A DNA stretch of 64,000 nt from Myxococcota bacterium (GTDB lineage: Bacteria; Myxococcota_C; UBA6777): contig JAKLKB010000012.1 of the NCBI GenBank assembly GCA_023150835.1, positions 1-64,000 on the forward strand. Reading direction: 5' to 3'. Positions within the stretch are counted from its first letter, which is position 1, and each line of letters opens with the position of its first letter. The position numbers and the translations under genes are program-made. Below the pieces are notes generated by a model. It was not told where the DNA came from. It ran no database searches and saw nothing but the letters and a program-made list of their open reading frames with translations. This document shows, one piece after another, positions 40,439-63,996 of the stretch.

Positions 40439-40551
40439 GCGTCGAGCCAAAGCGCCGAACAGCGGCTATTTTAAGCGTCGAGCAAAAGCCTCCGAACAGC
40501 GGCTATTTTAAGCGTCGAGCAAAAGCCTCCGAACAGCGGCTATTTTAAGCG
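40408..40551. repeat. 36/37-bp tandem repeat x4 duplicating the 3' end and stop of the YkgJ gene
   Basis: CCGAACAGCGGCTATTTTAAGCG at 40419, 40455, 40492, 40529. Confidence 0.95.
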
Positions 40552-43797: not shown

Positions 43798-45033
43798 TTA
43801 TTGGGCGGTATAGCACAAACGGTTGCTCGGATCACCATTGGTATCGCTGGTGTAGAAACCATGCGATTTGTCACGGTTATCGAGGCAGATGGTGAACTTG
43901 ATCTTGCCGTCCACTTTGTTCGACGGATCGGTCGTGATGCTTGGGTTGCCAGCGATCGCTCCTTCACCTTTGTGGGTGGTGATGCTTGCGCGTTTGGTGT
44001 CGATCGATCCGGATTTGTTGTAGTAGCTAAAGCTAACTTCGACGGTGCCGTTGGCGTTATCTTTTCCACAAAGGCTTTTGTTTGCGTCAAAGGGACGACA
44101 ATCGTAGCCGTTGGGACAATCGCTCGTGGTCGTACATTCGGTGCGGCTGCTGTCAGCGCTCCAACAAGAGTTCGAGGTGATGCGGTTGATCTTCACGTCG
44201 TGGATGATGCTGCCTTTGCTGGTTTCGATGCCTGTAGCCCAACCTTCGTTGCCTGTAGCGTTTTCGTCGCAGGCTTCGTTGGGGACGGCTTGGCAACCAG
44301 CTGTTTTGTTGTCGTCGGGGCAGTAGGTTTTCTTGGCGGCTTCGTGACAGACAGCGGTGGTGGTACAAGCAGCGGGGCCTTCGCAGACGTTGGTGGTGGT
44401 GTTGCACTTTTTGCCGCTACAGTTTTGATCCGACACGCATTCCACACATTTTCCAGCGGTGCTGCAAACTTTGCCGGGCTTGCTTGCGCACTGTGGGTCT
44501 GCTGTACACTCACGAGGCGGAGGGACGCACTTTTTGGGACTTGCAGCGGTGTCGCAAGTCGTGTTGGGGGCCTTGCCTGCGCAATCTGTATCGCCCTTGC
44601 ACTCGTCGAGTTGTTGTCCGGGCTTCAAACAGAAGCTATCACGGCACTCTTCGCCACCCGTACACTGCGTATTATCCGCGCATTTGATCACACAGGTTTT
44701 TTTGAAGGGATGACAAGCGTAGGTCGCGCCTTCTTTTGCACAAGCGGTCGCATCGCAGACGCAGCGGCTCAGGGTGTCATCGCATTTGTTTCCGGGATCG
44801 CAGTCTTTGAAGCTTGCGTCTTTGCAGTTTTTGAAGCACATACCTGCCGTTGTATCGCAGACTTCATCTGTTTTGCACTGCGTGTTGGAAGTGCATCCGC
44901 TTGTCCCACCGTCGCCACCGTCGGCGTTGGTGTTTTCGGTGTTGGTTCCGCCCGGACATCCGGCCAAAGTCGTTGCAAGCATCACCGCAAAAGCAGTTCC
45001 ACACAAAAGGCTTATCCATCTTTGAATCATCAC
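43798..45033 (-). CDS. Cys-rich lipoprotein with repeated CxxxxxC disulfide modules
   Basis: GGAGG RBS; lipobox LAGC; CTSNTQC, CADNTQC, CKGDTDC, CTADPQC, CVSDQNC, CTTTSDC. Confidence 0.85.
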   Translation of the reverse strand: MMIQRWISLLCGTAFAVMLATTLAGCPGGTNTENTNADGGDGGTSGCTSNTQCKTDEVCDTTAGMCFKNCKDASFKDCDPGNKCDDTLSRCVCDATACAKEGATYACHPFKKTCVIKCADNTQCTGGEECRDSFCLKPGQQLDECKGDTDCAGKAPNTTCDTAASPKKCVPPPRECTADPQCASKPGKVCSTAGKCVECVSDQNCSGKKCNTTTNVCEGPAACTTTAVCHEAAKKTYCPDDNKTAGCQAVPNEACDENATGNEGWATGIETSKGSIIHDVKINRITSNSCWSADSSRTECTTTSDCPNGYDCRPFDANKSLCGKDNANGTVEVSFSYYNKSGSIDTKRASITTHKGEGAIAGNPSITTDPSNKVDGKIKFTICLDNRDKSHGFYTSDTNGDPSNRLCYTAQ

Positions 45034-45496
45034 GTTCCTCCATGAGGGGTTGAGGTGGTCAAAGCCACCTTTGGGAAAGCGTTGTCGCTTTGCTTGTTTC
45101 TTTATGTCCTCGCTTGCGCGTTTTGTCAAAGTTTCGCAAGGCCCATTCCATCTTTTTTCTGCGCCCCCTTACAACACCAGAATCGCAAAACTTTTTTTCA
45201 AACCAGTGCGATCTTGCGCGCACACTCGCCCGTTCAAAACAACGCGACCTAGACATCTGTGTCATACTTTCGGTTCACGGCAGCGACGCTCTTCTTTCAA
45301 CAAATCTCCGTGAATCGCCAGCGAGCGAAAGATCGGCTCGCCCAAACATAGAAAAAATAAGCACGTTCTCTAAATAAGACGAGATAAAACGAGGCATCTC
45401 AAAAAGAGATCACCCTCCACCCTGTTTGTCCCCGTTTGCGCACGCTAGGTTCCATCAAAACAGGCGGAAGATGCTCACACAACAACAGAAGTTTAC

Positions 45497-48945: not shown

Positions 48946-49008
48946 GTGTGATCGTAAGATATTGCGTAGACGACCGATTCTTGGGCAGCACACCTGTCTG
49001 CCCCTACA
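48946..49008 (-). repeat. REP-family composite copy, reverse complement of the unit at about 4933-4993
   Basis: TGTGATCGTA..TGCGTAGACG.CCGATTCTTGGGCAG..CTGCCCCTAC. Confidence 0.8.
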
Positions 49009-49211
49009 CCGTTAGGGTAACACTATGGGCGGATTTCGTATCACTCTCCACCGCAAAACACGGATCTAAGGATCGCAGCGCAAAAAGGAAGTCCTGTTGC
49101 GAAATTGAAAAGGCCGAAGATACGAGCGATCAGACAGGGGATATCAAAAGGAGGGTAGAGAAGGAAGAGGAAAGGATGGGGTTGGTGGAAGCGAAAGAGG
49201 CGGATGTCCGG

Positions 49212-52200
49212 TCACTTGGGGATACGGAGACCTTTGAGAACACGCGGATCGATGCGGAGGAGACGCGGGGCGGGTTTGGCGTTTCCTGCTTTGGCGAGTT
49301 CTTCGTCGATGACGGACTTGAACTGTTCAAAGGGTTGAGCGCCGACAACAGAACGACCGTTGATAAAGAAGGTGGGCGTTCCGTTGGCTCCGGCTTCGCG
49401 AGCTTGTGTAAGATCAGCCTCGACGTAGGCTTTGTATTTGCCGCTATCAAGAGCTTGTTGGAAGCGCGCCGTGTCAAGACCTAGCTCTTGGGCCCATTTA
49501 ACAAAGTTTTCTTTGTTGAGGTTGCGGAAGTTGGCAAACAGCTTGTCATGGAATTCCCAGAACTTGCCTTGTTCATGCGCAGCCATCGAGGCTTGAGCGG
49601 CGAGGTGGGCATTTTGATGGAAGGGCAACGGAAGGTGCTTGAATACCACGCGCACTTTGCCACCGTAGGCTTTTTTGATCTGTTCGATGGTTGCAGCCCC
49701 ACGAGAACAGAAGGGACACTCAAAGTCCGAAAACTCCACGATGGTCACTGGAGCGTTGACAGGTCCGAAGGACGGGGCCTTTCCAGCATCGACCTTCACA
49801 ACGGGCGGAGCTTGGGGGCGTTCAGGTTGAGGTGCAGCGGGACGGCCAAGTTGCTTGCCAGCAAGCACATCGTCGATCACTTGCTTGAAGCGGGAGTACG
49901 GCTGTGCGCCGACAACGCGAAGGCCGTTAACAAAGAAGGTAGGCGTTCCGTTGGCCCCGACAGAGCTTGCATAAGAGGCGTCGGCATCGACGTACTTGGC
50001 AAGAGCGGGATCATCAAGATCTTTTTTGAAGCGCGCCGTATCAAGGCCGACTTCTTGGGCCCACTTGAGGTAGTTGTCGCGGTTCAAGTTGCGGAAGTTG
50101 GCGAACAGTTTGTCATGGAATTGCCAGAACTTGCCTTGGCGATGTGCAGCCATCGAGGCGATAGCAGCGGGCTTGGCGTTGCGATGGAAGGGCAACGGAA
50201 GGTGCTTGAACACCACGCGCACTTTGTCGCCATAATTTTTCTTGATCTCGTCCATCGTTTTTGCGCCACGAGAACAGAAAGGACATTCAAAGTCCGAAAA
50301 CTCGACGATCGTCACCTTGGCATCGGCAGGACCGAGAGTTGGTGCATCGCCAAGATTGATCTTCACGATGGGTTCGGGTTCGGGTTGACTCGGGCGTTGG
50401 GGAGCAGCAGCACCCGGTATCGGCTTTCCAGACAGTGCAGCGTCGATCATCTGCTTGAAGCGGAAGATCGGTTGCGCGCCCACAAGGACGTGGCCGTTGA
50501 TGAAGAAAGTGGGTGTTCCGTTGGCCCCGACAGAGCTTGCATAAGAAGCGTCGGCATCAACGTATCGGGCAAGAGCGGGATCATCGAGATCTTTTTTGAA
50601 GCGTTCGACATCAAGGCCAACTTCTTGGGCCCACTTGAGGTAGTTGTCACGGTTCAAGTTGCGGAAGTTGGCGAACAGTTTGTCGTGAAATTGCCAGAAC
50701 TTGCCTTGGCGATGTGCAGCCATCGAGGCCACAGCAGCGGGCTTGGCGTTGCGATGGAAAGACAACGGCAAGTGCTTGAACACCACGCGGATCTTTCCAG
50801 CATAATCCTTCTTCAGTTGCTCGACCGTGGCGGCACCACGAGAGCAGAAAGGACACTCAAAGTCCGAAAATTCGACGAGCGTCACTTTGGCGTCGGCAGG
50901 TCCCCACGCTGGGGCATCACCGATCTTGATATCGACTTTGCTCGGAGGAGCCGAGGGCGTCGGGCGTTGGGGAGCATCGCCCGGGATAGGTTTTCCGGCC
51001 AGTTCGGCGTCGATGATCTGCTTAAAGCGGAAGAAAGGCTGCGCACCACCGAGTTCAAAACCGTTGATAAAGAAGGTGGGTGTTCCGTTGGCTCCGACAG
51101 AGCTTGCATAAGAAGCGTCGGCATCGACGTGCTTGGCAAGAGAGGGATCATCGAGATCTTTTTTGAAGCGCTCGACATCAAGGCCGACTTCTTGAGCCCA
51201 CTTGAGGTAGTTGTCACGATTCAAGTTGCGGAAGTTGGCAAACAGTTTGTCATGGAATTCCCAGAACTTGCCTTGGCGATGCGCAGCCATCGAAGCCACC
51301 GCAGCAGGCTTGGCGTTGCGATGAAAAGACAACGGCAAGTGCTTGAACACCACGCGCACTTGATCGCCGTAGGCTTTTTTCACTTCGCGGATCGTCGCGG
51401 CCCCACGAGTACAGAAAGGACACTCAAAGTCCGAAAACTCCACGATCGTGATCTTGGCGTTGGCGGAACCCCATGTCGGGGCGTTTCCGATCACCATCTT
51501 CTTGCGCGCCCCTGCCGCTGCGGGAGAGGGCTGCGGAGCAGGTGTGGGGGCCGAAGGAGCGGCTTTTCCAGAAAGGATATCGTTGATCACTTGTTGGAAG
51601 CGATCGAACGGTTGGGCTCCCACCACACTTTGGCCGTTGATAAAGAAGGTGGGTGTTCCGTTGGCTCCGTATTGACGGGCAAGAGCGAGGTCTGCATCAA
51701 CAACGGCTTTGTATGTACCGCCGTCTAGCTCGCGTTGGAAGCGTTCGACGTTTAGGCCGAGTTCTTGGGCCCATTTGACAAAGTTTTCTTTGTTGAGATT
51801 GCGGAAGTTGGCGAAGAGTTTGTCGTGATAAGGCCAGAACTTGCCTTGTGCGTGGGCAGCCATCGAGGCTTGGGCAGCGAGGTGAGCGTTGCGATGGAAA
51901 GGCAACGGAAGATGCTTGAACACCACGCGCACTTGGTTGCCGTAGGCTTTTTTGATCTGCTCGATGGTTGCAGCCCCACGAGAACAGAAGGGACACTCAA
52001 AGTCCGAAAACTCCACGATCACGATCGGGGCATTGTTGGGTCCGAAGGAGGGGGAATTTCCTAGTGGGATCGTGTTCTTCGCAGCGAGGCGGTTCAAGCT
52101 CGGGATCACAACAGAGGGTTGTGAAGGTCGTACAGTACGGCCTTTTCCGCTCAGTTCTTGATCGATAATGGTTTTGAATTGATCGAAGGGTTGAGCGCCG

Positions 52201-53483
52201 ACGACGGACCGACCGTTGACAAAGAAAGTGGGCGTTCCATTGGCTCCTTCACGTCGAGCTTGTGCAAGATCGGCATCGACATAAGCTTTGTATTTGCCGC
52301 TATCAAGGGCTTGTTGGAAGCGAGCGACATCAAGGCCGAGTTCTTTGGCCCATCGGATGTAGTTGTCGCGGTTCAAGTTGCGGAAGTTGGCAAAGAGTTT
52401 GTCGTGATAAGGCCAGAACTTGCCTTGTTCGTGTGCAGCCATCGAAGCTTGCGCTGCGGAGTGTGCGTTGCGATGAAAAGGCAACGGAAGATGCTTGAAC
52501 ACCACGCGCACTTGGTTGCCGTAGGCTTTTTTCACTTCGCGGATGGTGCTTGCGCCACGAGTGCAGAAGGGACATTCAAAGTCCGAAAACTCCACAATCG
52601 TCACTTTGGCGCTGGCTGGTCCCCATGTCGGGGCATTGCCGAGGGCGATCTGTTTGCGAGGGCCGGTAGGAGCGGCTTCTGGGCGCGGTTGAGGTTTTTG
52701 AGCGAGGCCTTTGCCAACCACTGCTTGATAAACACGGCTTTTAGGCGTCCCAGACGCGATCATCTTTTGCGCGGTGCTGACTTCTTGGTCGATGATCTGC
52801 TTGAAACGTGCGAAGGGTTGGGCTCCTACAAGAATGCGACCATTGATGAAGAAGGTAGGCGTCCCGCCTGCCCCCATCTGTTGGGCATAACGATCATCGG
52901 CATCGACGTAGGCTTTGTATTTGCCGCTATCAAGGGCTTTTTGGAAGCGAGCGACATCAAGGCCGAGTTCTTGGGCCCATTTGAGGTAGTTGTCGCGGTT
53001 CAAGTTGCGAAAATTGGCGAAGAGTTTGTCGTGATAAGGCCAGAACTTACCTTGTTCGTGGGCAGCCATCGAGGCTTGTGCAGCGGAGTGAGCGTTGCGA
53101 TGAAAGCTGAGCGGGCGATGGCGAAAAGCCACACGTACTTTGTCGCCGTACACCTTTTTCACCATATCGATGGTGTTTGCGCCACGGTTGCAAAAAGGAC
53201 ATTCAAAGTCCGAAAACTCAACGATCGTCACTAACGCATCTTTGGGTCCGAAGGATGGGGCGTTTCCAACCTTCACGTTGTAGCGCTGCACATCCCGTGC
53301 AACAGCGCCTTCTTGGCCGCCACCGCGACCTGTCTTGTCAGCTTGTCCTCTGGTTGCTTTGCGCTCTTTCGTCGGCATCAAGCCCGTGAGTTTGGCGTCT
53401 TCAACACCAAACCGGCCCAGCATGAATCCGAAGAAGAGGCCAGCCACCACACCGATGATGAGACCTTGCTTCATACCGTTCAT
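49212..53483 (-). CDS. Membrane-anchored protein with seven tandem DsbA-like thioredoxin domains
   Basis: N-terminal TM; EFSDFECPFC x7 and GTPTFF x7 with Pro-rich linkers, period about 190 aa. Confidence 0.95.
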   Translation of the reverse strand: MNGMKQGLIIGVVAGLFFGFMLGRFGVEDAKLTGLMPTKERKATRGQADKTGRGGGQEGAVARDVQRYNVKVGNAPSFGPKDALVTIVEFSDFECPFCNRGANTIDMVKKVYGDKVRVAFRHRPLSFHRNAHSAAQASMAAHEQGKFWPYHDKLFANFRNLNRDNYLKWAQELGLDVARFQKALDSGKYKAYVDADDRYAQQMGAGGTPTFFINGRILVGAQPFARFKQIIDQEVSTAQKMIASGTPKSRVYQAVVGKGLAQKPQPRPEAAPTGPRKQIALGNAPTWGPASAKVTIVEFSDFECPFCTRGASTIREVKKAYGNQVRVVFKHLPLPFHRNAHSAAQASMAAHEQGKFWPYHDKLFANFRNLNRDNYIRWAKELGLDVARFQQALDSGKYKAYVDADLAQARREGANGTPTFFVNGRSVVGAQPFDQFKTIIDQELSGKGRTVRPSQPSVVIPSLNRLAAKNTIPLGNSPSFGPNNAPIVIVEFSDFECPFCSRGAATIEQIKKAYGNQVRVVFKHLPLPFHRNAHLAAQASMAAHAQGKFWPYHDKLFANFRNLNKENFVKWAQELGLNVERFQRELDGGTYKAVVDADLALARQYGANGTPTFFINGQSVVGAQPFDRFQQVINDILSGKAAPSAPTPAPQPSPAAAGARKKMVIGNAPTWGSANAKITIVEFSDFECPFCTRGAATIREVKKAYGDQVRVVFKHLPLSFHRNAKPAAVASMAAHRQGKFWEFHDKLFANFRNLNRDNYLKWAQEVGLDVERFKKDLDDPSLAKHVDADASYASSVGANGTPTFFINGFELGGAQPFFRFKQIIDAELAGKPIPGDAPQRPTPSAPPSKVDIKIGDAPAWGPADAKVTLVEFSDFECPFCSRGAATVEQLKKDYAGKIRVVFKHLPLSFHRNAKPAAVASMAAHRQGKFWQFHDKLFANFRNLNRDNYLKWAQEVGLDVERFKKDLDDPALARYVDADASYASSVGANGTPTFFINGHVLVGAQPIFRFKQMIDAALSGKPIPGAAAPQRPSQPEPEPIVKINLGDAPTLGPADAKVTIVEFSDFECPFCSRGAKTMDEIKKNYGDKVRVVFKHLPLPFHRNAKPAAIASMAAHRQGKFWQFHDKLFANFRNLNRDNYLKWAQEVGLDTARFKKDLDDPALAKYVDADASYASSVGANGTPTFFVNGLRVVGAQPYSRFKQVIDDVLAGKQLGRPAAPQPERPQAPPVVKVDAGKAPSFGPVNAPVTIVEFSDFECPFCSRGAATIEQIKKAYGGKVRVVFKHLPLPFHQNAHLAAQASMAAHEQGKFWEFHDKLFANFRNLNKENFVKWAQELGLDTARFQQALDSGKYKAYVEADLTQAREAGANGTPTFFINGRSVVGAQPFEQFKSVIDEELAKAGNAKPAPRLLRIDPRVLKGLRIPK

Positions 53484-53537
53484 CGTGGTTTTTTACCTTC
53501 TGTATAGGGGTGGGAGCAAAAAACAAAGAGAAATCGA

Positions 53538-54662
53538 TTATTTCCCTTGTTTGATCAGTTCGCTGTATACGTTTTCGGGTTTGATACCGCGCTGGAGCGC
53601 TGCGTCCGCGTCTTTGAGGGCGCGATTCGCCACGTCCAACGGGCTATCTTGCTCGCCCACAGGGTATCCGTTGATGTAAAAAGACGGAGTACCCGGGACG
53701 TTGATTTTTGTAGAAAGCTTGAGATCCTCTTGAACAGCGGTTGCGATGGCGGGATCTTTCAGGTCTTTTTGAAACTTCTCGACGTCCAGTTTGAGTTCTT
53801 TTGCGTAACGAACAAAGTCCTCCGCCTTGAGCTTTTCTTGATTTGCAAAGAGTTTGTCGTGGTACTCCCAAAACTTGCCTTGACGATGTGCAGCCATGGA
53901 GGCGATGGCAGCGGGCATTGCGTTTGGATGGAAGGACAGCGGAAGGTGGCGGTACGCCACACGGATGTTTTGCGCTCCGAACTGTTTTTGCAGCGCTTCC
54001 ACTTGTTGATGGGCTTGTGCGCAATAAGGACATTCAAAGTCCGAAAAGATGACGATCGTGATCTTGGCGTTGGCGGGGCCTTTGATCGGTGCGCCATCGA
54101 CGGGGATGGGGAGGGGCTTGTTGGCAGCGGCCTGTTTGGGAGCTTCTTGACCGACGCTGTCCAAGACTTTTTTGATCTCGTCTGCCGATTTGTTTTGTTT
54201 CACGGCATCCGCCACAAACTCCGCAACGCGCTGGATGCTTGGGCAAGTCTTGGAATCCGTTTGATAACAGCGCGCAAGGGTCTGGCCGCAACTGCAAGGA
54301 TGCTTGAGCGTGTTTAGGATCTTCAATGCGAATTCTTGCTTTTCTTTGGAAAGCTCGGCCAAAGAAACACCTTGTAGATCAGAAGCCTTGAGCGCAGGTT
54401 GAGAGGCCGGAGCAGAAAGAACAGGCGCGCATCGCGCAGGGCTGGGTTCTTTCTGTGCTTTGGCCACCACTTCTCGACGGCGTGCTGGAGGACTTGCCGT
54501 AGGAACCGCATTGACCTGATGTGTGGGGTACAAAACGGGATACGCAGGGGGAGGAATTAAGCCACCAAACCGACCGAACCACGCCCCAAACAGGAATGCC
54601 GCAAAGACCCAACCACTATAAAGAAACATTCGCTTTGAGCTCGAAAGAGCTTGCTCACTCAT
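53538..54662 (-). CDS. DsbA-like protein with an extra four-Cys helical N-domain
   Basis: TM; PCSCGQTLARCYQTDSKTC; FSDFECPYC; GTPSFY. Confidence 0.9.
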   Translation of the reverse strand: MSEQALSSSKRMFLYSGWVFAAFLFGAWFGRFGGLIPPPAYPVLYPTHQVNAVPTASPPARRREVVAKAQKEPSPARCAPVLSAPASQPALKASDLQGVSLAELSKEKQEFALKILNTLKHPCSCGQTLARCYQTDSKTCPSIQRVAEFVADAVKQNKSADEIKKVLDSVGQEAPKQAAANKPLPIPVDGAPIKGPANAKITIVIFSDFECPYCAQAHQQVEALQKQFGAQNIRVAYRHLPLSFHPNAMPAAIASMAAHRQGKFWEYHDKLFANQEKLKAEDFVRYAKELKLDVEKFQKDLKDPAIATAVQEDLKLSTKINVPGTPSFYINGYPVGEQDSPLDVANRALKDADAALQRGIKPENVYSELIKQGK

Positions 54663-54950
54663 CCAACGCCTCCGTAAACAACGATATCCCCAACGATAAA
54701 GGGATGTTGCAATGAATCGTGCGCCTACACCACCACGGGTTCCACCCGCACAAAAATGAAGAGCCTGTTTGCATAACTGAATTAAAGCCCATCGTCAACC
54801 CCAAACCGCAAGCCCTCACACTCTATTCCGTTAGGTCGGTGGATTCTCGAACAGACGAAAGAAACGTTTGGCGCACCAAGCCTCACGACACCGCCGCTTG
54901 AAGTGGGGGCAAACGCGGCTTTTTTTGTCCACTACACGACCCCTATCCTA

Positions 54951-54978
54951 TTGACATCGTGATGCGGCCCCCTATGAT
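54951..54978 (+). promoter_or_regulatory. Putative sigma70 promoter of the OB-fold lipoprotein operon
   Basis: TTGACA-16 nt-TATGAT. Confidence 0.6.
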
Positions 54979-55183
54979 GCGGCACAAGAACAGAAAAACA
55001 TCTGCAAGTGTCTTTGATTTTCTTTTTCGATCAAGCAGATAGGATTCTATTGCGTTCCTTTCCTGCGTTGATGAGCCTTGCGTGTTTTGCTTGGATCTTT
55101 GATAACGTGCCAAGAGGAAAGGGTGCGTATTCTTTTTTTGTGGAACTGCGCACGAGCGCATGGTGTTTGGTGCAGGAGAAGAC

Positions 55184-56506
55184 ATGGACTTCCGAAAGAT
55201 TGGGTTCGCTCTAGGAACTGCGGCGTTTGTCGTATTTGTCGCACTTGCAGGCGCTTGTGGCCCCGGCAAAGAAGGCGCACGCTGCCAAGCCACAAAAGAG
55301 TGCGACACGGGCCTTCGCTGTGTCGACTTTGTGTGTAAGGCCTCTCTTCCTCAGCCTGAAAAAACGCTCGAAGAAGCCAGCGCAGACGCCGAACCCATCG
55401 GCGAGATCGCAACAGACGCCTCTCCCGAAGAAGCTATCTCCAACCCCGAAGAAGCTATCTCCAACCCCGAAGAAGCTGTCTCCAACCCCGAAGAAGCTAT
55501 CTCCAACCCCGAAGAAGCTGTCTCCAACCCCGAAGAATCCGTCTCCAATCCTGAACCCCAACCCGAATCAAACCCCGAATCTTCGACGGGTCCGACCCTT
55601 TATGATCTCCTTGATCCGACATCTTCACAAATCGGTCAAGAAGGCGCGACGGTCGAGATCAGCCAAGTCGTGATGATGTCGCCTGCCTCCCGACTGGCCG
55701 CCACATTGGATCTGTTCTTTGTTCAAGAACCCCAAGCACGCCAAGGAAGCTACCGTTATGGCGGGATCGCAGTCGTTTTTGAACGCGACAAGATCCAGAT
55801 CGGCACCCTCTCTGTGGGTTCGCGGATCGCGATCAAAGGCCGTTTTACGCGGTACCGAACGGTAGATTGGGCGGCCAACTGTACAACGGACGCCGATTGT
55901 ACAAACGCCCAGAAGAACCGATGTTCCGATGTTTACGACAAAAAAACATCCAGCGTCGTCAAGCGATGCGCAACGGCCCAGTCCGTTCCACAGATCGAAC
56001 TGAGCCAAACCCCAAGTGTTGTCGGCGCAGGCCCCGTCCCTGCTCCCGAAGAAGTCAAAACTTCTGACATCAACAAAGATGGCACAACCGCCCAAGCCTA
56101 CCTTGGCGTTTACCTCGAAGTCAAACAAGTCCAAGTGACGAACAAAAACCCCGATGATCCCAGTGATTTCGGCGAATTTCTGGTCGCCCCCACCAACAAC
56201 CTCAACGAAACCCTTCGTATCGACGATCAGATCAACACCATCGCCTACACAGGAGCCAAGTTCTGCGGATGCGGCACAGGCAACCAACCTGACAACACCT
56301 ACTGCTTGCCGGGCGACACCTGCCAGTGCGTGGGAGCGCAAGTCTGCGGTGGAACCAAGCGCGGCTGTTGTTTTGCGCAAGGAACACAACCCTCCCAAGA
56401 CACCCGCTCACAAGGCGATACCTTTGCGTCGATCCGTGGAGTTCTTTATTTCAGTTTCAACAACTACAAGTTGCTTCCGCGCATTCCCACCGATATGCAA
56501 AAGTGA
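55184..56506 (+). CDS. Lipoprotein with OB-fold-like domains and Cys-rich inserts
   Basis: AGGAG RBS; lipobox AGAC; FFVQE..YGGIAV..VGSRIAIKG; GDTFASIRGVLYFSFNNYKLLPR. Confidence 0.75.
   Translation: MDFRKIGFALGTAAFVVFVALAGACGPGKEGARCQATKECDTGLRCVDFVCKASLPQPEKTLEEASADAEPIGEIATDASPEEAISNPEEAISNPEEAVSNPEEAISNPEEAVSNPEESVSNPEPQPESNPESSTGPTLYDLLDPTSSQIGQEGATVEISQVVMMSPASRLAATLDLFFVQEPQARQGSYRYGGIAVVFERDKIQIGTLSVGSRIAIKGRFTRYRTVDWAANCTTDADCTNAQKNRCSDVYDKKTSSVVKRCATAQSVPQIELSQTPSVVGAGPVPAPEEVKTSDINKDGTTAQAYLGVYLEVKQVQVTNKNPDDPSDFGEFLVAPTNNLNETLRIDDQINTIAYTGAKFCGCGTGNQPDNTYCLPGDTCQCVGAQVCGGTKRGCCFAQGTQPSQDTRSQGDTFASIRGVLYFSFNNYKLLPRIPTDMQK
55424..55555 (+). repeat. In-frame 21-bp tandem repeat about x6 (PEEA[IV]SN)
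   Basis: CCCGAAGAAGCTRTCTCCAAC repeated. Confidence 0.95.
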
Positions 56507-56557: not shown

Positions 56558-58213
56558 ATGCGAAGATTGTTTTGTTTTTGGATGGGGGTGATGGCGATCG
56601 CGAGCGCGGCATGCTACTCACCCGTCGAACCGCCCACCATCTCGGGGGATTTTGTCATAAGCCTGTCTTTCCAACAAAATCCCGATCTTGGAAAAAGCGC
56701 CGATAAACCCCGACCTGTAGCGCGCTTGGGCGAGATCGCTCAAATCGACATCCAAGCCCGCAAGCTCGCCCCCGACGGAACCGCCTCCAACAACGACGCC
56801 TATGATGGCTATATCTGCCTGTATTCTTCGCGTGGTTTGCTCGAAGGTACGGGAAAAGCCGTCAAGTTGTCAAATGGCCGCGCCCAAGTCCCCCTGCGCA
56901 TCCGTCTGGCTTTTGGAAAGGTCACGCTGTGGGTGGGCGAAGTCAAAGATGATCCCACCAACCCCGGCCCAAACGGCGTACCGATCTGCCCTGACAATGC
57001 CAACCCACAAGACAAAACTCGCCCATCTGTCGGACAATCGGGATCTTCTGCCCCGATCTTTTACCAGCTCCTCAGCGTCGCCGATCTCCAAGAAACAGAC
57101 GCCAGTTCGGGCGATTCCCCGCTCTACAAACGCCAAGCCGTGTTGGGGAGTGGAAAGATGGTTGTCACAGCCGTCACCAACAACGGCTTTTATATCAGCG
57201 ACATGAACGCCGTCGCCACGGGCTTAAAGTATGCCTCCGCCTTTATCTTCACATTCTCCGCCCCCAACCTCGCCTTTGAAGATGGCGAAGCTCCCCGCCT
57301 GCTCGAAGTCGGCGAACTGATCCATTGCATACAAGGCGGTGTTGACGAGTTCAGCGGTCATACCCAACTCACCTTTCCCAGCTTTACACCCATCTGGAAA
57401 ACCTCCACCCCCGAATGCGGAAAACCCCCACCCCAAGGCAAAAATGAGATCCAACGTATCCCCGTCGATCAACTTCCGCCACCGATCGAGATCGCTTCGG
57501 ATATCTTGTGGACGCGATCCAAAATGGAACCCTACGAATCCGCGATCGTCGAAGTCAAAAACACCGTCGCGATCCCCTTTTCTCAAAGCCAAGACGGATG
57601 GCAAGAATTCCGCCAGTGGCCTGTCTTGATGGTCGAAGCGGATCGTCCCGAAGATCGCGCAGCATGTGAGAACTACATCCGCACCGAATTGATGCTCCAC
57701 AACGATCCAGCCAAAAACGATCTCGCCAAAAGCACCTACCGTACGGGCCTCAAAGCTTGCTTCGACGCACGAAAACCCGCCGAAGATGCTTGCACCAAAA
57801 CCCGCAGCACCTGCACCAAAGAGGCAACCGCTTGTGAAGCCGATCTCACCGCCTGTAAACAAAAAGTGGTCGACACTTGGTACACTTGCTTTTTTGATGA
57901 ACGCTTCCGAACCACCGAACCCAAGGGACTTTTCCCTCGCCTCGAAGCCTTTACCCCCCAAGGCGCTCAGGCTCCTGCCGTCTGTCGTTATGGGATCATG
58001 CTTGTGATCTCGAACGCCACCGTCCCCGAGTTGGATGTCACCACCCAAGAACACCTCACCCGTCGTTTTACACGGATTCGCGGTGTCCTCCAGCAAACCA
58101 AAGCCAGTTCCTACTACGGACTCGTCAACGATCAATATCCCGATGAACTCTCAAACAACGGCTATGTGATCTTGGTCCGAAACAGCGACGATATCGTCGT
58201 TGAGAAAAAATAG
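56558..58213 (+). CDS. Lipoprotein with OB-fold-like domains and a Cys-rich helical insert
   Basis: Lipobox SAAC; VVTAVTNNGFYISD, GGVDEFSGHTQL, EPYESAIVEV, RIRGVL. Confidence 0.72.
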   Translation: MRRLFCFWMGVMAIASAACYSPVEPPTISGDFVISLSFQQNPDLGKSADKPRPVARLGEIAQIDIQARKLAPDGTASNNDAYDGYICLYSSRGLLEGTGKAVKLSNGRAQVPLRIRLAFGKVTLWVGEVKDDPTNPGPNGVPICPDNANPQDKTRPSVGQSGSSAPIFYQLLSVADLQETDASSGDSPLYKRQAVLGSGKMVVTAVTNNGFYISDMNAVATGLKYASAFIFTFSAPNLAFEDGEAPRLLEVGELIHCIQGGVDEFSGHTQLTFPSFTPIWKTSTPECGKPPPQGKNEIQRIPVDQLPPPIEIASDILWTRSKMEPYESAIVEVKNTVAIPFSQSQDGWQEFRQWPVLMVEADRPEDRAACENYIRTELMLHNDPAKNDLAKSTYRTGLKACFDARKPAEDACTKTRSTCTKEATACEADLTACKQKVVDTWYTCFFDERFRTTEPKGLFPRLEAFTPQGAQAPAVCRYGIMLVISNATVPELDVTTQEHLTRRFTRIRGVLQQTKASSYYGLVNDQYPDELSNNGYVILVRNSDDIVVEKK

Positions 58214-58354: not shown

Positions 58355-59980
58355 ATGGACCGTCGGATGCAAAAAAACTGTTGGATACTCTCGTGCCTTT
58401 TCTTGTGCTTGATCAGCTCGCTCTCTCCGATGCACGCCCAAGCTGGCGACTTTATGGATACACGTATCACCTTTGCGCTTTCGGACGACAACCTGTTGCT
58501 CGGCCCCGGCCTCAGCAACCCCTCAAGCCCCTCCACCAGCTTCGTCCCGGGCGCACGTAGCGTCCTCTTCTTCGACAACTACAACAAACGCGACTCGGGC
58601 TTTGAATCGCTCTCCCATGTCGCGTTGTACAAAGAGATGCCGTCCTTTTTCAAAGGGCTTACGACTGCGGCTGCGTTGGTTGTGCGGATGGATTATTTCC
58701 TCGAACGTCGCGAGTTTCGCTTGACTGACGCAGGAAGCTACATCCGCACCACCTACTTCTTCAACCCCGAAGACGCCACCGCCAAAGAAAAACCCAAACT
58801 GCGCCGAAACCTCGATATCGTCGCCTTCCCGCTCAGTTCGGATCGTTTTCGGATGGGTTATAGTTTTCGGATCTCTTGGGGAGGAGACTTCACCTTCCCT
58901 CGCCGCTCGATCAAAAGCCCCGTCCCGGGTGTGAAAGCTCAACTAAACTACGATTTCTCCGAATCTGCGGGACTTTCTATCTTTCTCGGCGGCAAAACTG
59001 TGTTGCTCCAACAGCTCATCACCCGCGAACAGATCGAAGAAGAAGTCGGCTACGGAATCTTGGGTGGTTTCGCCTTGCGTCTCGGCCAATTTTCATGGGA
59101 AGGCGGCGGCGCTTTTTTCAACAAAGGCACCTTCTTTAACCCCACCGTCAAAGCCGAACCCATCTACTTTTACGGCGGTTCGACACAGATATCCTACGCG
59201 ATGGGCATCCCAGTAGGCGTCTCGATGGACTTTGCGCTGTATCGAAACGATCCGCTCAAACCACAAAAATTCTTCAAACCCGAACAATACGTCCCCGGCA
59301 AGTTTAGTTTCATGGTCGCCGCCGAAGCCTCGGTGGTTGCGAACCTTTTGGAAAACCCCGACCCCGCCCAAGTCGGTGGGATCGTCCCCCAAGTCGGCAT
59401 CGCAGCCGACCTCAACTTTCGCATGAAATACGGCTATTGGCGGATGCACCTTGATGTGATGTACCGCGATCTTTCTTTCATCTTGCAAAACGTCCCCGGC
59501 TTTGTTCCCTTCCAAGCCTTCGCAAACGATCAAGTCCAAACACCCGAATTCTTCGCAGCCTTGGGTGTAGATTATCACATCGCCCCCGCTCACCTGACCT
59601 TGGGGCTGATCGTCGGTCTTCAAATCCCCTCGACCTTCCGAGGCGTCATCCCCAAAGAACTCACCGGACAAGTCCCCGTCGGCAGCACCACAGGCCAACA
59701 GATCGTCGTCGTGCGCGGTGAAGGCGACTTTGTCCTTCTCCCAACCGTCGATGCTGCCGGAAACAAAGTCGAGATCATCCCGATCGTCAGCGCAAAACTG
59801 ACCTTCAAATGGCAACTCAGCGAGTTTATGGCCATCATCGGCGACGTGTTGTTCAGCTTTGACAGCAACGAAACACGCCTCGAACGCGCCCAATACACGG
59901 GCGATGGAACGGTTGTCAGCCGCGTGTTTGTCGATCCGATCCGCCTCGGCTTCAATCTCATGGGACAAGCCCGCTTCTAA
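58355..59980 (+). CDS. Probable outer-membrane beta-barrel protein of unknown function
   Basis: Signal peptide ending AQA, amphipathic beta strands, C-terminal GFNLMGQARF. Confidence 0.7.
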   Translation: MDRRMQKNCWILSCLFLCLISSLSPMHAQAGDFMDTRITFALSDDNLLLGPGLSNPSSPSTSFVPGARSVLFFDNYNKRDSGFESLSHVALYKEMPSFFKGLTTAAALVVRMDYFLERREFRLTDAGSYIRTTYFFNPEDATAKEKPKLRRNLDIVAFPLSSDRFRMGYSFRISWGGDFTFPRRSIKSPVPGVKAQLNYDFSESAGLSIFLGGKTVLLQQLITREQIEEEVGYGILGGFALRLGQFSWEGGGAFFNKGTFFNPTVKAEPIYFYGGSTQISYAMGIPVGVSMDFALYRNDPLKPQKFFKPEQYVPGKFSFMVAAEASVVANLLENPDPAQVGGIVPQVGIAADLNFRMKYGYWRMHLDVMYRDLSFILQNVPGFVPFQAFANDQVQTPEFFAALGVDYHIAPAHLTLGLIVGLQIPSTFRGVIPKELTGQVPVGSTTGQQIVVVRGEGDFVLLPTVDAAGNKVEIIPIVSAKLTFKWQLSEFMAIIGDVLFSFDSNETRLERAQYTGDGTVVSRVFVDPIRLGFNLMGQARF

Positions 59981-59993
59981 TCTCCACAACAGC

Positions 59994-60104
59994 CGCAGGG
60001 GACGCGGCCTTGATGGTTAGAGTGCTTGGTCGCAGGGGACACGGCCTTGATGGTTAGAGTGCTTGGTCGCAGGGGACGCGGCCTTGACGGTTAGAGTGCT
60101 TGGC
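59994..60104. repeat. 37-bp tandem repeat x3 duplicating the stop region of the gshB-like gene
   Basis: CGCAGGGGACRCGGCCTTGAYGGTTAGAGTGCTTGG at 59994, 60031, 60068. Confidence 0.95.
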
Positions 60105-61026
60105 CGAGCGTGTGAAAAATGGGGTCGGTGACGGATTGGGAGGAGACTTGTTGGAGCTCAGCAAGTCCGATGGGGCAGGAGAGATTCAACTCGATCAACA
60201 AGCCATCGCTGACATCGAGGCTCGCCAAGAAGATGCCTTCTTCGCGCAGCACAGGTCCAACGGTGCGGATGATGGCTTGATCTTTTTCGGAAAGCTGGAC
60301 GGATACGGGTTTTGCGCCTCGATTGAAAGAGCCGCGTAGCTCGCCCATGCCCGGGACTTGAAGCGCCACACCAAGAAAGTTCCCATTCAACAAAAAGAGG
60401 CGCTTGTCGCCGTCTAGCTCGGTATCATTGATCATCTTCTGCACAAGGACGTATTGTTGGCCTTGTTGCGTCAAAAGCTCCGAAAGCAGCTTGGTGTTGG
60501 GGTCACCCATCCGCAGGAAAAACATATTGTGTCCTTGGGACGCATGGAGAGGGCGGATCGTGGCCTTCCCACCGACTTCGGACAAAAAGGCGCGGATCGC
60601 ATCGGGATGCTTGGTCACCAAAGAAGGCGGGCAGAACGAAGGGAAGCGCAGCGCAAACAGATGTTCGTTGAGGTTGCGCAGCGTGCGCGGGGCATTCAAC
60701 ACAGCCGTCGAGGGCGGAAGCATCTGTAACGCATCCAGAGCAAACAGCGTATCCGGCGCAAAAGGCGGAGACTTCCGCCACCACAACAGGTTCAACTGAT
60801 CGAGCGGCGCGAGAAACGACTCGCCCAGTACGACCCGCCCTCCTTCCACCGAGATCGGAGCCATATAACCAACGGGACGGCTTTGTTGGATGTGAAGATC
60901 AGACACTTCCATCCAAAAAAGTTGGTAGCCGTAATTTTGAGCGGCTTGCATCAGCAAGAGAGTAGTAGTGTCGTTTTCTTCGAGGTGTTCGAGATGATCA
61001 GTCACGAAAGCGATACGTTTGGTCAT
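60091..61026 (-). CDS. gshB: Glutathione synthetase-like ATP-grasp protein (divergent)
   Basis: IAFVTD..DTT..LMQAAQ, RKSPPF, GDKRLF, LDV, ELN; several conserved residues changed. Confidence 0.7.
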   Translation of the reverse strand: MTKRIAFVTDHLEHLEENDTTTLLLMQAAQNYGYQLFWMEVSDLHIQQSRPVGYMAPISVEGGRVVLGESFLAPLDQLNLLWWRKSPPFAPDTLFALDALQMLPPSTAVLNAPRTLRNLNEHLFALRFPSFCPPSLVTKHPDAIRAFLSEVGGKATIRPLHASQGHNMFFLRMGDPNTKLLSELLTQQGQQYVLVQKMINDTELDGDKRLFLLNGNFLGVALQVPGMGELRGSFNRGAKPVSVQLSEKDQAIIRTVGPVLREEGIFLASLDVSDGLLIELNLSCPIGLAELQQVSSQSVTDPIFHTLGQAL

Positions 61027-61143
61027 TGCGGCAACTCCGTCGCGAGGGGAAGCGGGTACAAGGGCATCTCTGTGGAGGGGTATGATGCCGATTTTCAACC
61101 TCTTGTCGAGGGGGAAACAACGATCCGCCACAAAAAGACCACA

Positions 61144-63996
61144 CTATCGAGCGGGTGGCGGCCAAGGTAGCGGCCTTTGATGTGCAGGCAAGGGCGAACT
61201 TTCAGGCTTGGGGGCGTTGAGTTGTCGGCTCAACTCATCAGGTGTGTCTTTGGTGGAAAGTACGACAGACTCGGATTGTCCGCTTTGTAGGTTGGTGGCC
61301 CGAAGCGTCAAGAGGCACTCGTTGCTGAGTTTAAATTGAAGCTCGACTTTGTGGACACCTTTGGGAGCGGGCTGTATGCCTGCAAGATGCAAGGTTCCAA
61401 GGTATTCGTTTTCTAGGGCGTTTTGGCTTTCGCCTTGGAATATCGGCAAATCGAGTACGGTCTGGTTGTCGCGGGTGGTTGCGGTGACGAAGTTCTTTTC
61501 AAACGGCAGCGGTGTGTTGGCAGCGATCACAGGAACAAAGCGCCCTCCGGGAAGGCCGATGCCGATCGGCAACGCCAGAACATCGATCAAACGAACCGCG
61601 TTCTTTTTGCCGAAGGAGTGGGCCAACAGAGCCGTCCCGATCGCTACAGCCTCGTCAGGATGGACGTTTCGGTGAGGCGGCTTGCCGAAATAAGCCGTCA
61701 GGCGCTCGTGAATCAAGGGCATCCTTGTCATCCCACCCACAAGAAGAACTTCATCGATATCTTCTTTCTTTAATTCACGCGCTTTCATCACGGCTTCACA
61801 GACGCGCAGAGTCTCTTCGACAAGGCCCTTGACAAGGGAGTTTAGAGCATCGCGTGTGATCTCTTGCTCAAGATGGATGGGCTTTCCGCCCCGCTGCAAC
61901 AGGTACGGGATGTTGATCCGTGTGCGTTTCTCCATCGACAGATCACACTTGGCTTTTTCGCAAGCATCCCGAACCCGCTGCATCTGGATCGGATCATTGC
62001 GAAGATCGATCTGGGTCTCTCGATAGAAGTCGCGGATCACGTGATCGATCAAGATGTTGTCAAAGTCGACTCCGCCCAAAAAAGTATTTCCGCCCGTCGA
62101 GATCACTTCAAACACATCTTTATCGACTTCGAGCACAGAAGCATCGAAGGTTCCGCCGCCCAGATCGTACACCAACAGGCGCTGTTGGATCCCACGCCCG
62201 AAGCCGTACGCAAGCGCCGCTGCCGTCGGCTCGTTGACGATACGCTCGACTCGCAGACCTGCCAACAAGCCCGCATCTCGGACGGCTTGGCGTTGTTGAT
62301 CGTTGTAGTGTGCTGGGACACTAATCACCGCACGATGAACGGGCTGGTGCAGGTATTCTTGTGCGATATCCCGAATCTCCGCAAGAATCAGCGCAGATAT
62401 CTGTTCGAGCGTAAAGGTCTTTTGATCGATGTATACCGCCGACCCGCCTTCGGACGTTTCGACGATGCTGTAGAGAAAACGATCTTTGATCAACTGTACA
62501 ATCCGCGAGCGATACTTTCGCCCGATCAACCGCTTGGCTCCATAGACCGTGTTGCGCGGATTCAACATCATCTGATTTTTAGCGGGGTGGCCGATCAACA
62601 GCTCGTGTTCGTCACTAAAAGCCACGATCGATGGGATCGTATTGTATCCAAAGCGCGACGGGATGACCTTGGGTCGGCCCTCTTCGACGATCGCACAACA
62701 ACTGTTTGTAGTCCCTAGATCGATGCCGATAATCGGGCCTGTCAGGGGGATATCTTCGATCTTTCCTTGGAAAAACAGCAGTTCCTCGCGGTGCGAAGAC
62801 AGCGACGCAAACTGCATCATCGTGGGATTCACCGCCTGCCCTTGGAGTGTCGGCATCGGCATCGTGCCGCTTGGAGTGTTGGTAGGAGACACGCTTGGGT
62901 TAGCGATGCTGATCGGTGCGGATGCAGCGGGAAAACCACTTCCACCGGTGGGAGGGGTCACGTCTTGAGCAGGCGACACTTTTGGATTTGCAGCGCGGGC
63001 AGCGAGCGGCCCCCCCAAAAGCGGCGTCGCTTCGGTCGGGGCATGGGGCGAGAGCGGACTCCCAAAAAGCGGTGTTGTTTCGGTCGGTGCATGGGGCAAG
63101 AGCGCCCCCGAAAGCATCGGCGTCACTTCGGTCGGATGCGAAGAAACCGTGTGCCCCGTCAAAACAGGCGTGACCTGCGTTGGTGCATCCGAAGAAGGCA
63201 GACTCCCCGCCAACGCCCCCCCCAAGGGGGCCTGAAAGGACGGTGCCCCAAGTGTTGGCCGTTGCATCGCGCCTGTTCGCGAAAAGATGCTCGGTTGTGG
63301 AGGGCGTGGCGGCTGTGGCGAAGCTTGCGGCAGCGAAGACAACGGTTGCGAGGATTGCTGCGATTGCGGAGAGGACGACAGCAACGGCGATTGCGGCGAC
63401 TGTTGCAAGGATTGTTGCGGCTGTGGTGAGGGCGACAGCAACGGCGGCTGTGGTGGTTGTGCAGATTGTGGTGGGGACGTTCGAGAGAGAGCGGGTGGTA
63501 GATGCGATGGCTGCGGAGAGTACGATGGTTGCGGAGATTGTGGCGGTGGAGTTCCTTCGCGTCCAAACGGCGGAGGCGACGAAGGAACAGGGCGTCCGAG
63601 TACTGGAGCTGGTTCCGAGGGGGGGTAGGTAGAACGAGAGATGGTCTCCGGTGGAAAGAAACTGCCTTGGATCACGGGTGGAAGATTCGCTTGCAAAGAC
63701 ACAGGAGCAGGCGTTGGGGGCATCGGGGAGGCGCTTGGCGGTGGAGCTGTACGAGGGAGGCGATTTCCGAGATCGGGATCACCGCTACCACCGAGTATCG
63801 GGGAGGCACTTGGCGGTGGAGCTGTACGCGGGGGCTGCGACCGGTGGGGAGGCGTGAACGTAGGGATGATCGCAGAGGACTCCATCGGCAAAGGAAACTC
63901 ATCGCCGATAGGTTGTTCTTCTCCTGCTGAGCGAAAAAGCGACGGATTGTGCGGGTAGGTTGCAGGAGGATTGGGGGGAGGCGTTGCAGAAAACAC
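61144..63996 (-). CDS. Hsp70/DnaK-family protein with long Pro-rich N-terminal extension (5' end probably outside the window)
   Basis: [47 protein letters not shown]; ends shortly after the SBD-beta region. Confidence 0.9.

Follow-up and report, generated by a model that had tools for sequence, protein, structure and literature searches.

Bacterial disulfide catalysts are described as monomers, dimers or trimers, and the oligomerisation or multimerisation of DsbA-like domains is linked to isomerase activity (PMC8900818). In the literature that we found, tandem forms reach at most "two or three DSBA domains" (PMC2757866), and a full-text literature search returned nothing on longer tandem-DsbA chains or on myxobacterial DsbA proteins. 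Here we analyse a 64,000-nucleotide (nt) stretch of DNA from a Myxococcota bacterium (assembly GCA_023150835.1, contig JAKLKB010000012.1, positions 1 to 64,000; hereafter the window), in which one gene encodes a chain of seven DsbA domains behind a single transmembrane (TM) anchor and the gene upstream, its partner, encodes an eighth such domain together with a small helical module carrying four cysteines (the 4-Cys module). The chain is a rare but not unique long member of a large Myxococcota tandem-DsbA family, and we lean slightly towards reading it as a membrane-tethered, multivalent envelope disulfide oxidase/isomerase at the long end of that family. How an oxidase is turned into an isomerase has so far been studied for the most part with engineered DsbC and ScsC; a family in which chains carry 3-8 catalytic domains across Myxococcota, their number having grown independently in several lineages, provides a natural 1-to-8-domain series for testing how valency and tethering bring about that change.

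Results

Seven intact DsbA domains in one polypeptide

Pfam recognises seven Thioredoxin_4 (PF13462) stretches in the chain (E 3.8e-195, 642 bits against a cut-off of 23.2) as well as seven DSBA (PF01323) stretches (E 2.6e-172, 569 bits against 25.6), and a CPFC active site stands in each of the seven domains, their 14 cysteines (Cys) being all the Cys of the protein (Table 1). A GTPTFF loop follows each CPFC, in 7 of 7 domains; with the partner included, all eight domains carry a CxxC and, opposite the active site, the G-T-P loop. The original prediction, made from the sequence alone, had described one TM anchor followed by seven complete domains that all retain CPFC and the GTP loop, preceded by a gene for an eighth domain with CPYC and an extra CSC..C..C motif, and the Pfam stretches, the motifs and the upstream open reading frame (ORF) bear out both statements. 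The model NF041057, for the Rcas_1661 family thioredoxin-like (seleno)lipoprotein, scores the chain at 734.6 bits, a figure summed over seven stretches of about 105 bits each and set against a single-protein cut-off of 190. A hidden Markov model (HMM) built from the seven domains found no further DsbA-like domain in a six-frame translation of the window.

Ahead of domain 1 lie the TM segment and a low-complexity linker. One hydrophobic segment makes up the N-terminus, where glycines at every fourth position form a perfect zipper (G7, G11, G15, G19, G23; a four-fold GxxxG), and the anchors of both chain and partner end GRFG. Near-identical MNGM[KR]QGLIIG anchors recur in five related proteins (P0001, P0002, P0003, P0008, P0011; P numbers denote relatives and L numbers loci from the searches described below) and at locus L014, and this common anchor with its zipper could mean that the TM segments associate with one another or with the same membrane partner. 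Neither product shows a lipobox: residues 1-90 of the chain contain no Cys, and in the partner the first, residue 78, comes after the TM segment. Domain 1 is followed by a helical extension (residues 235-270) that domains 2-7 lack, the linkers between domains are Pro/Ala-rich and of uniform length (17-21 residues), and the basic C-terminal tail is nearly identical in P0005, similar in P0004 and P0008, and absent from most family members.

Table 1. Positions of the two genes and their parts within the window
Feature	Position	Strand	Description
Partner gene	53538..54662	(-)	374 aa: TM anchor, 4-Cys helical module, one DsbA domain, C-terminal helical tail
Partner TM anchor	54564..54626	(-)	~aa 13-33, ends FGAWFGRFGG; predicted helix 9-32; hydropathy maximum 1.56
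4-Cys helical module	54150..54377	(-)	~aa 96-171; C123, C125, C132, C140 (CSC..C..C)
Partner DsbA domain	53655..54107	(-)	aa 186-336, CPYC 211-214, GTP loop 324
Intergenic spacer	53484..53537	(-)	54 nt; GAAGG ribosome-binding-like site 13 nt before ATG of chain gene
Seven-domain DsbA chain gene	49212..53483	(-)	ORF of 1423 aa
Glycine-zipper TM anchor of chain	53415..53465	(-)	aa 7-23, GLIIGVVAGLFFGFMLG, then RFG; hydropathy maximum 2.29
Chain DsbA domain 1	52782..53294	(-)	aa 64-234, CPFC 95
Chain DsbA domain 2	52155..52664	(-)	aa 274-443, CPFC 304
Chain DsbA domain 3	51579..52085	(-)	aa 467-635, CPFC 497
Chain DsbA domain 4	51006..51512	(-)	aa 658-826, CPFC 688
Chain DsbA domain 5	50439..50945	(-)	aa 847-1015, CPFC 877
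Chain DsbA domain 6	49869..50375	(-)	aa 1037-1205, CPFC 1067
Chain DsbA domain 7	49299..49811	(-)	aa 1225-1395, CPFC 1256
Basic C-terminal tail of chain	49215..49298	(-)	LAKAGNAKPAPRLLRIDPRVLKGLRIPK (AKPAPRLLRIDPRVLKGLRIPK), after last domain; no nameable known motif

Each copy is old and constrained

A repeat search recovered seven DNA-level copies spaced 567-627 nt apart, plus an eighth, partial-length match in the upstream gene; Tandem Repeats Finder, run on 49000-55000, is blind to these repeats, as its longest period is 500 nt. Pairwise, the copies are 67-82% identical as DNA and 63-81% as protein, and the longest exact DNA run that they share is 59 nt, so that collapse or inflation by the assembler is unlikely. 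The ratio of nonsynonymous to synonymous substitution rates (dN/dS) between copies ranges from 0.11 to 0.26 (median 0.19) at a dS of 0.52-2.3, from which it follows that each copy is old and individually constrained; all seven share the same residue in 86 of 158 aligned columns, and the chain is under purifying selection and no decaying repeat. An independent homologue, P0002 (67% identity, 1415 aa), likewise carries seven intact CPFC domains. The closest relative, P0005 (89% identity, 833 aa), is annotated with four; it opens partway through the counterpart of window domain 3 and then matches window domains 4-7 domain for domain, so that the annotation probably covers just part of a longer orthologous gene. 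P0005 lies with P0122 on one 499,702-nt contig, outside the 72 loci considered below.

A quick maximum-likelihood tree was built from 55 domains taken from 11 proteins, and in it the internal domains mostly fall together with others of their own chain, whatever their position: all six of P0008, domains 5-7 of P0003 and of P0004, domains 4-7 of P0001 and of P0002, and domains 4-6 of the window chain, the last within a starred clade that includes domains 1-3 of P0005. This clustering by protein points to repeated lineage-specific duplication or concerted evolution. The first domains of several chains form a group of their own, and window domain 3 pairs with domain 3 of P0002. The DsbA domain of the partner sits on a long branch, its active site being CPYC in the window and CPHC in L014.

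The units belong to the BdbD/ScsC/actinobacterial branch

Searched against PDB sequences, domain 1 matches 3GYK (7e-21), Corynebacterium diphtheriae DsbA/TsdA (~1e-19), BdbD (7e-14), Caulobacter ScsC (1e-10), Salmonella and Proteus ScsC (~1e-8) and classical DsbAs (~1e-5), with 4PWP and 7UNN also among the matches, and the partner yields the same list. An AlphaFold2 model of the partner DsbA domain, with a predicted local distance difference test (pLDDT) of 80-95, is matched by Foldseek to 3GYK, Caulobacter ScsC (CcScsC), C. diphtheriae TsdA/DsbA and BdbD at a probability of 1.00, and the sequence and structure matches together place the units in the BdbD/ScsC/Gram-positive-type (actinobacterial) branch of DsbA. 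A thioredoxin fold with an inserted helical domain is predicted by the partner model and, for the chain domains, suggested by end-to-end sequence alignment with 3GYK and 4PWP.

A large Myxococcota family in which seven domains are rare

Among proteins of 782-2491 aa, a word-based search that scored the 7998 candidates sharing most words with the chain returned 882 relatives at E<=1e-3. Domain counts, obtained with the HMM from the seven window domains, are four in 106 of the best 120 relatives, five in six, six in two, seven in three (P0002, P0004, P0006) and eight in three (P0001, P0003, P0007). The original prediction named only two- and three-domain bacterial forms; that has to be widened, since chains beyond three evidently exist, yet its sense that seven is exceptional holds, and as the domain-count survey it proposed finds seven-domain forms rare, the objection it raised against itself, that they might already be common, does not apply. 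When 1.84 billion cluster representatives were searched with a single domain, 50,570 matched at E<=1e-3, and the best 150 of these comprise 11 two-domain, 112 three-domain, 24 four-domain, two five-domain proteins and one six-domain protein. The partner as query finds mostly three-domain proteins of ~650 aa (116 of the best 120), and ~650-aa three-domain proteins annotated as "DsbA family protein" occur in cultured Corallococcus, Myxococcus, Cystobacter, Stigmatella and Archangium.

Species-representative genomes hold at least 608 stretches encoding relatives, of which 72 loci were kept. Their stop-to-stop ORFs carry four domains in 11 cases, three in 33, two in 22 and one in 23, with none above four. 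Chains of at least three domains in these loci belong to Myxococcota or to metagenome-assembled genomes (MAGs) labelled Deltaproteobacteria, bar three four-domain loci (one labelled Pseudomonadota, one Candidatus Omnitrophota, one unplaced). Adjacent genes bring the count per locus to 6-8 in Nannocystis (2+3+2), in a Polyangiaceae MAG (3+3+2) and in six loci of 3+3, so that many domains can be amassed through arrays of genes as well as within one long chain. Such multi-gene DsbA arrays were seen at L035 (Nannocystis radixulma), L030, L016 and L018/L020/L021/L038/L039/L064. The TGA-split ORFs of the Nannocystis loci L035 and L030 were considered as seven-domain selenoprotein read-through chains and rejected, their stops falling at protein ends and not at active sites. 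Overall, tandem-DsbA chains are widespread in Myxococcota, with three domains the mode, four common and 5-8 rare.

By a crude rule, the N-termini of the 120 best relatives are hydrophobic in 78 cases, lipobox-like in 20 and the same MNGM[KR]QG anchor in five, with 17 unclassified, several of which show signal peptides by eye; by that rule the family appears to be exported. The dominant active-site motif of relatives is CPFC (936 of the motifs counted). Among 1199 motif sites in 382 fetched relatives, monothiol Cxx[ST] occurs 29 times and [ST]xxC five times, with CPFS in three of the eight P0003 domains (domains 5-7) and a monothiol site (these natural sites are CPFS or CPFT) also in P0007 domain 4. 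From work on PDI (protein disulfide isomerase) and DsbC, CPFS domains can form no internal disulfide and cannot act as oxidases, and they keep the nucleophilic Cys. With an internal disulfide impossible and the attacking Cys retained, they fit shuffling chemistry, and monothiol sites in otherwise CxxC chains suggest that the domains of a single chain divide the work among themselves.

A further variant was noticed at L023 (SHYY01000058.1, a Baikal-deep Myxococcales MAG), where an in-frame TGA falls exactly at the first active-site Cys of two consecutive DsbA domains (L023:10094 and L023:10724; ..SDFQ*PFCSR..). Each UGA is followed by an identical ~36-nt stretch with an 8-bp GC-rich hairpin starting 14 nt past it, and an Rfam scan of L023 returned no family. 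The locus is thus a candidate for a selenocysteine (UPFC) tandem-DsbA protein, and one that also carries the 4-Cys module.

The partner and its 4-Cys module

The partner and chain genes are co-oriented, the spacer between them holds no terminator-like site, and the two probably form an operon. Pfam assigns the partner to Thioredoxin_4 (E 2.2e-23, 83.7 bits) and DSBA (E 1.7e-21, 77.3 bits), and NF041057 scores it at 79.8 bits, below 190. Its orthologues are 95, 89, 81 and 54% identical to it, and an AlphaFold2 model of the whole protein has a mean pLDDT of 70.4. Five Cys precede the DsbA domain (78, 123, 125, 132, 140), of which C123, C132 and C140 are invariant across nine aligned module sequences.

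AlphaFold2 models the module, from six sequences and at a pLDDT of 72, as a small helical bundle. Its top Foldseek match is the CcmH structure 2HL7 (template-modelling scores 0.57/0.66, root-mean-square deviation 3.2 over 77 columns, probability 0.94, E 0.71), with 2KW0 also matched, and the modelled fold may thus weakly resemble that of CcmH. Six module sequences matched no Pfam family at E<=10 save noise (SapB_1 0.018, TAF6_C 0.07), a module-profile search of PDB sequences gave two chance matches and no CcmH, and the best feature score in a protein atlas search, 0.77 for an Acidobacteriota cluster, lies below the useful level.

A word-based search with residues 96-178 returned three close orthologues only, and for that reason the wider distribution of the module rests on an HMM run over fetched sequences, which finds it in eight of 383 fetched proteins and in five ORFs of four of the 72 loci, in every case after the anchor and ahead of the first DsbA domain. 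In P0001 (eight domains), P0004 (seven domains) and L014 the module is fused into the chain itself; the window chain is without it. The two-gene arrangement recurs at L014, a Myxococcales MAG locus whose chain is 59% identical and which also has homologues of window genes 56558-58213 and 58355-59980. The partner, then, is a paralogue of the chain bearing an accessory module that other lineages keep in-chain.

The fusion of the module into related chains provides a fusion-type argument for a functional link between the two products and not for a trans-membrane electron relay, which the original prediction had suggested as a role of the partner. That suggestion finds no support: the partner is a paralogue whose anchor is of the type found on the chain and whose DsbA domain evolves fast, and with one TM helix it could not on its own carry electrons through the membrane or hand them to quinones. 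A complex prediction for domain 1 (residues 60-270) with the soluble part of the partner (residues 95-374) scored 0.00, the mark being 0.32, and speaks neither for nor against an interaction.

Genomic neighbourhood

Several genes of the window encode Cys-rich products, whose export was judged by eye from their N-termini. A PilY1-like product (30497-35122) has 63 Cys (4.1%), a 443-aa product with no Pfam family (43798-45129 (-), 4 kb from the DsbA genes) has 42 (9.5%), and putative lipoproteins encoded at 55160-56506, transcribed divergently from the partner gene, and at 56558-58213 have 17 and 14. The earlier claim of Cys-rich neighbours thus mostly stands, for the PilY1-like protein and two putative lipoproteins, but not for the third supposed lipoprotein (58355-59980), which has only 3 Cys (0.6%). 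A link of the chain to these genes for putative envelope proteins is plausible, by proximity only; synteny with the window is shared by one of the 72 related loci (L014). Type IV pilus and secretin genes are also present in the window.

In neighbour clustering of the 72 loci, the largest cluster spans 14 loci and contains an ABC-transporter ATPase example. One BLAST-clustered family lies directly downstream of four-domain DsbA genes (L010:12767-13384, L029:12584-13225, L032:12681-13496, L044:2469-3248); the L010 and L029 members, the two that were scanned with Pfam, are AhpC-TSA/Redoxin (TlpA-like) thioredoxin-fold proteins.

A few features of the window stand apart from the DsbA genes. Within ORF 55160-56506, a 21-nt repeat in 6.3 copies (55424-55555 (+)) encodes PEEAISN repeats. 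A glutathione synthetase gene (GshB, 60091-61131 (-)) and an Hsp70-family gene (61144-63996 (-); 950 aa, with an N-terminal extension of ~420 aa) lie in the region 5-9 kb from the DsbA genes, and no link to these was established. Near-perfect tandem repeats occur at 1-208 (51 nt x 4.1), 6148-6295 (39 nt x 3.8), 40408-40551 (37 nt x 3.9) and 59994-60103 (37 nt x 3.0); because the first of them makes the repeated opening peptide of ORF 12-2360, the start of that ORF may not be real.

Discussion

We have described a chain of seven DsbA domains, all with intact motifs and all under constraint, at the long end of a family that is widespread in Myxococcota. If the oxidase/isomerase reading is right, both products would be inner-membrane-anchored, periplasm-facing thiol-disulfide oxidoreductases, and the chain would be a beads-on-a-string polymer of a glycine-zipper signal-anchor, seven intact DsbA domains and a basic tail, belonging to a family that may have grown by lineage-specific internal duplication. 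Such a polymer would crowd its CPFC sites together at the membrane, close to where Cys-rich envelope proteins come out; several active sites might engage one substrate simultaneously, and domains in different redox states could both introduce and reshuffle disulfides, whichever source supplies the oxidising or reducing power. The partner would be a specialised paralogue, its 4-Cys module perhaps a thiol-relay or metal-binding accessory. In favour of this reading, the nearest relatives of known structure comprise oxidases and isomerases (3GYK, C. diphtheriae DsbA/TsdA, BdbD, and the ScsC proteins of Salmonella, Proteus and Caulobacter). What the original prediction saw is confirmed, and its interpretation as a folding system is supported in part.

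Several points weigh against an envelope oxidase/isomerase. The CPxC and Thr-cisPro features cannot settle oxidase against isomerase, because plain monomeric oxidases carry them too. The periplasm-facing topology is presumed, and basic residues are more numerous after the TM segment than before it. No DsbB, VKOR, DsbD/ScsB or CcdA was found among the 46 window ORFs scanned, and the neighbour clustering of the 72 loci revealed no conserved redox partner beside the relatives. With synteny in just one of those loci, the link to local Cys-rich genes may be coincidence. Finally, repeat number could drift by unequal recombination and carry no adaptive meaning.

The family may also explain how folding is managed in organisms with very Cys-rich secreted proteomes, and the 4-Cys module, the monothiol CPFS domains and the candidate selenocysteine (UPFC) variant found in relatives offer further handles. 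A bolder form of the idea, which we regard as unlikely when taken whole, is that the covalent DsbA polymer represents a distinct bacterial route to a high-valency, membrane-tethered isomerase or "processive foldase", expanded repeatedly and independently to 7-8 units in uncultured Myxococcota, with a hitherto undescribed CcmH-like 4-Cys module acting as a thiol relay or metal site, which the partner would supply in trans where the chain no longer has its own.

The alternative that survives best, and one that we still consider unlikely, is an ScsC-like copper or metal-stress system, in which the CPFC sites and the module would sequester Cu(I) and/or repair copper-induced disulfides and would be reduced by a DsbD/ScsB-type reductase encoded elsewhere. 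CcScsC and StScsC are reported to bind Cu(I) at subpicomolar affinity and to support copper tolerance (PMC8900818), and ScsC is indeed among the solved relatives of the chain domains, though 3GYK, C. diphtheriae DsbA and BdbD match better. The CxC...C...C cluster could plausibly form a soft-metal site; it belongs, however, to a module that the window chain itself lacks. A Redoxin/TlpA-like gene downstream of four-domain genes, in the four-locus cluster confirmed by Pfam at L010 and L029, counts in its favour, whereas the scanned window ORFs include no scsB, dsbD, cop or cus gene and the chain has no N-terminal trimerisation helix.

Distinctly less probable is a reductive thiol relay of the cytochrome-c-maturation type, in which a CcmH-like module, itself reduced by the thioredoxin-fold domains of partner or chain, would keep particular substrate Cys reduced. 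The CcmH domains 2HL7 and 2KW0 are the only sensible Foldseek matches of the module, its Cys cluster sits in the stretch joining helix 1 to helix 2, the place of the redox motif in CcmH, and it is always joined to a DsbA-type domain. Against this stand the E of 0.71 for a model built from six sequences at a pLDDT of only 72, the lack of any CcmH match in Pfam at E<=10 or in the profile search of PDB, a motif that is CxC and not CxxC, and a window in which no ccm genes were seen.

That the chain is above all a long, flexible tether or spacer, fixed to the inner membrane and binding peptidoglycan, the outer membrane or a secretion machine through its basic tail, with the domains chiefly serving as folded beads, strikes us as very improbable. 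The conservation of the tail in the window chain, P0005, P0004 and P0008, the uniform Pro-rich linkers, and the type IV pilus and secretin genes in the window would agree with such a role, yet most family members have no tail, and a spacer would have no need of seven strictly conserved active sites and cis-Pro loops at a dN/dS of ~0.19. An assembly artefact, or a recent and neutral inflation of repeats that adds nothing to what a single DsbA does, is hardly credible: tandem repeats of ~570 nt are a classic source of mis-assembly and P0005 is annotated with only four domains, but the copies are too divergent (dS of at least 0.52, with the DNA identity and exact runs given above), P0002 has seven intact domains independently, and the P0005 gene appears to have been called too short.

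Comparison with known systems

Returning to the envelope oxidase/isomerase, its true homologues are the Myxococcota three- and four-domain proteins annotated as "DsbA family protein" or "thioredoxin domain-containing protein", from the cultured genera named above and from Polyangia and Bradymonadia MAGs, which are known as database annotations only. At 40-60% identity they share with the chain the same domains, CPFC, tandem arrangement, short linkers and exported N-termini, and they differ in having fewer than seven domains and, mostly, a signal peptide, a lipobox or another anchor. The best single-domain matches (E 7e-21 to 7e-14) are BdbD of Bacillus subtilis, the actinobacterial DsbA/MdbA/TsdA of Corynebacterium diphtheriae and 3GYK of Silicibacter pomeroyi; some proteins of the BdbD and actinobacterial DsbA type are membrane-anchored or lipoprotein oxidases, and all three, unlike the chain, are single-domain proteins.

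For the 4-Cys module the nearest likeness is the periplasmic domain of CcmH, which carries its redox motif between helix 1 and helix 2. The modelled module may share with it a small helical bundle and a Cys cluster after helix 1, a match at the level of the fold, and is set apart by having no sequence similarity to it, by its CxC with two further Cys and by its fusion to a DsbA domain.

The original prediction had called the chain PDI-like. Loosely this is apt, in that eukaryotic PDI also joins several thioredoxin-fold domains in one polypeptide and acts on secretory substrates; PDI, however, combines catalytic a with non-catalytic b domains of the plain thioredoxin fold (PF00085), whereas the chain has no b-type domains and no passing PF00085 stretch, all seven of its units being of the catalytic DsbA type, which has the helical insert. 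Nor do the Pfam matches of chain and partner include the N-terminal dimerisation domain of DsbC/DsbG, and the NCBIfam DsbG model, at 71.7 bits against a cut-off of 124, gives no passing stretch.

The trimeric isomerases, namely ScsC of Proteus and Caulobacter, BcfH of Salmonella and alpha-DsbA2 of Wolbachia, resemble the chain in holding several catalytic DsbA-type domains, of the Thioredoxin_4 class and with Thr-cisPro, close together on flexible connections, and they also turn up among the sequence and fold matches. They are soluble, assemble non-covalently through an N-terminal helical stalk, present three sites and work with an ScsB/DsbD partner. In the window chain there is no N-terminal trimerisation helix, and no DsbD/ScsB family was seen among the scanned window ORFs; in place of the stalk it has a membrane anchor, and in place of three associated sites seven covalent ones. 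By analogy, the chain may be seen as a covalent counterpart of the non-covalent trimers of ScsC, BcfH and alpha-DsbA2.

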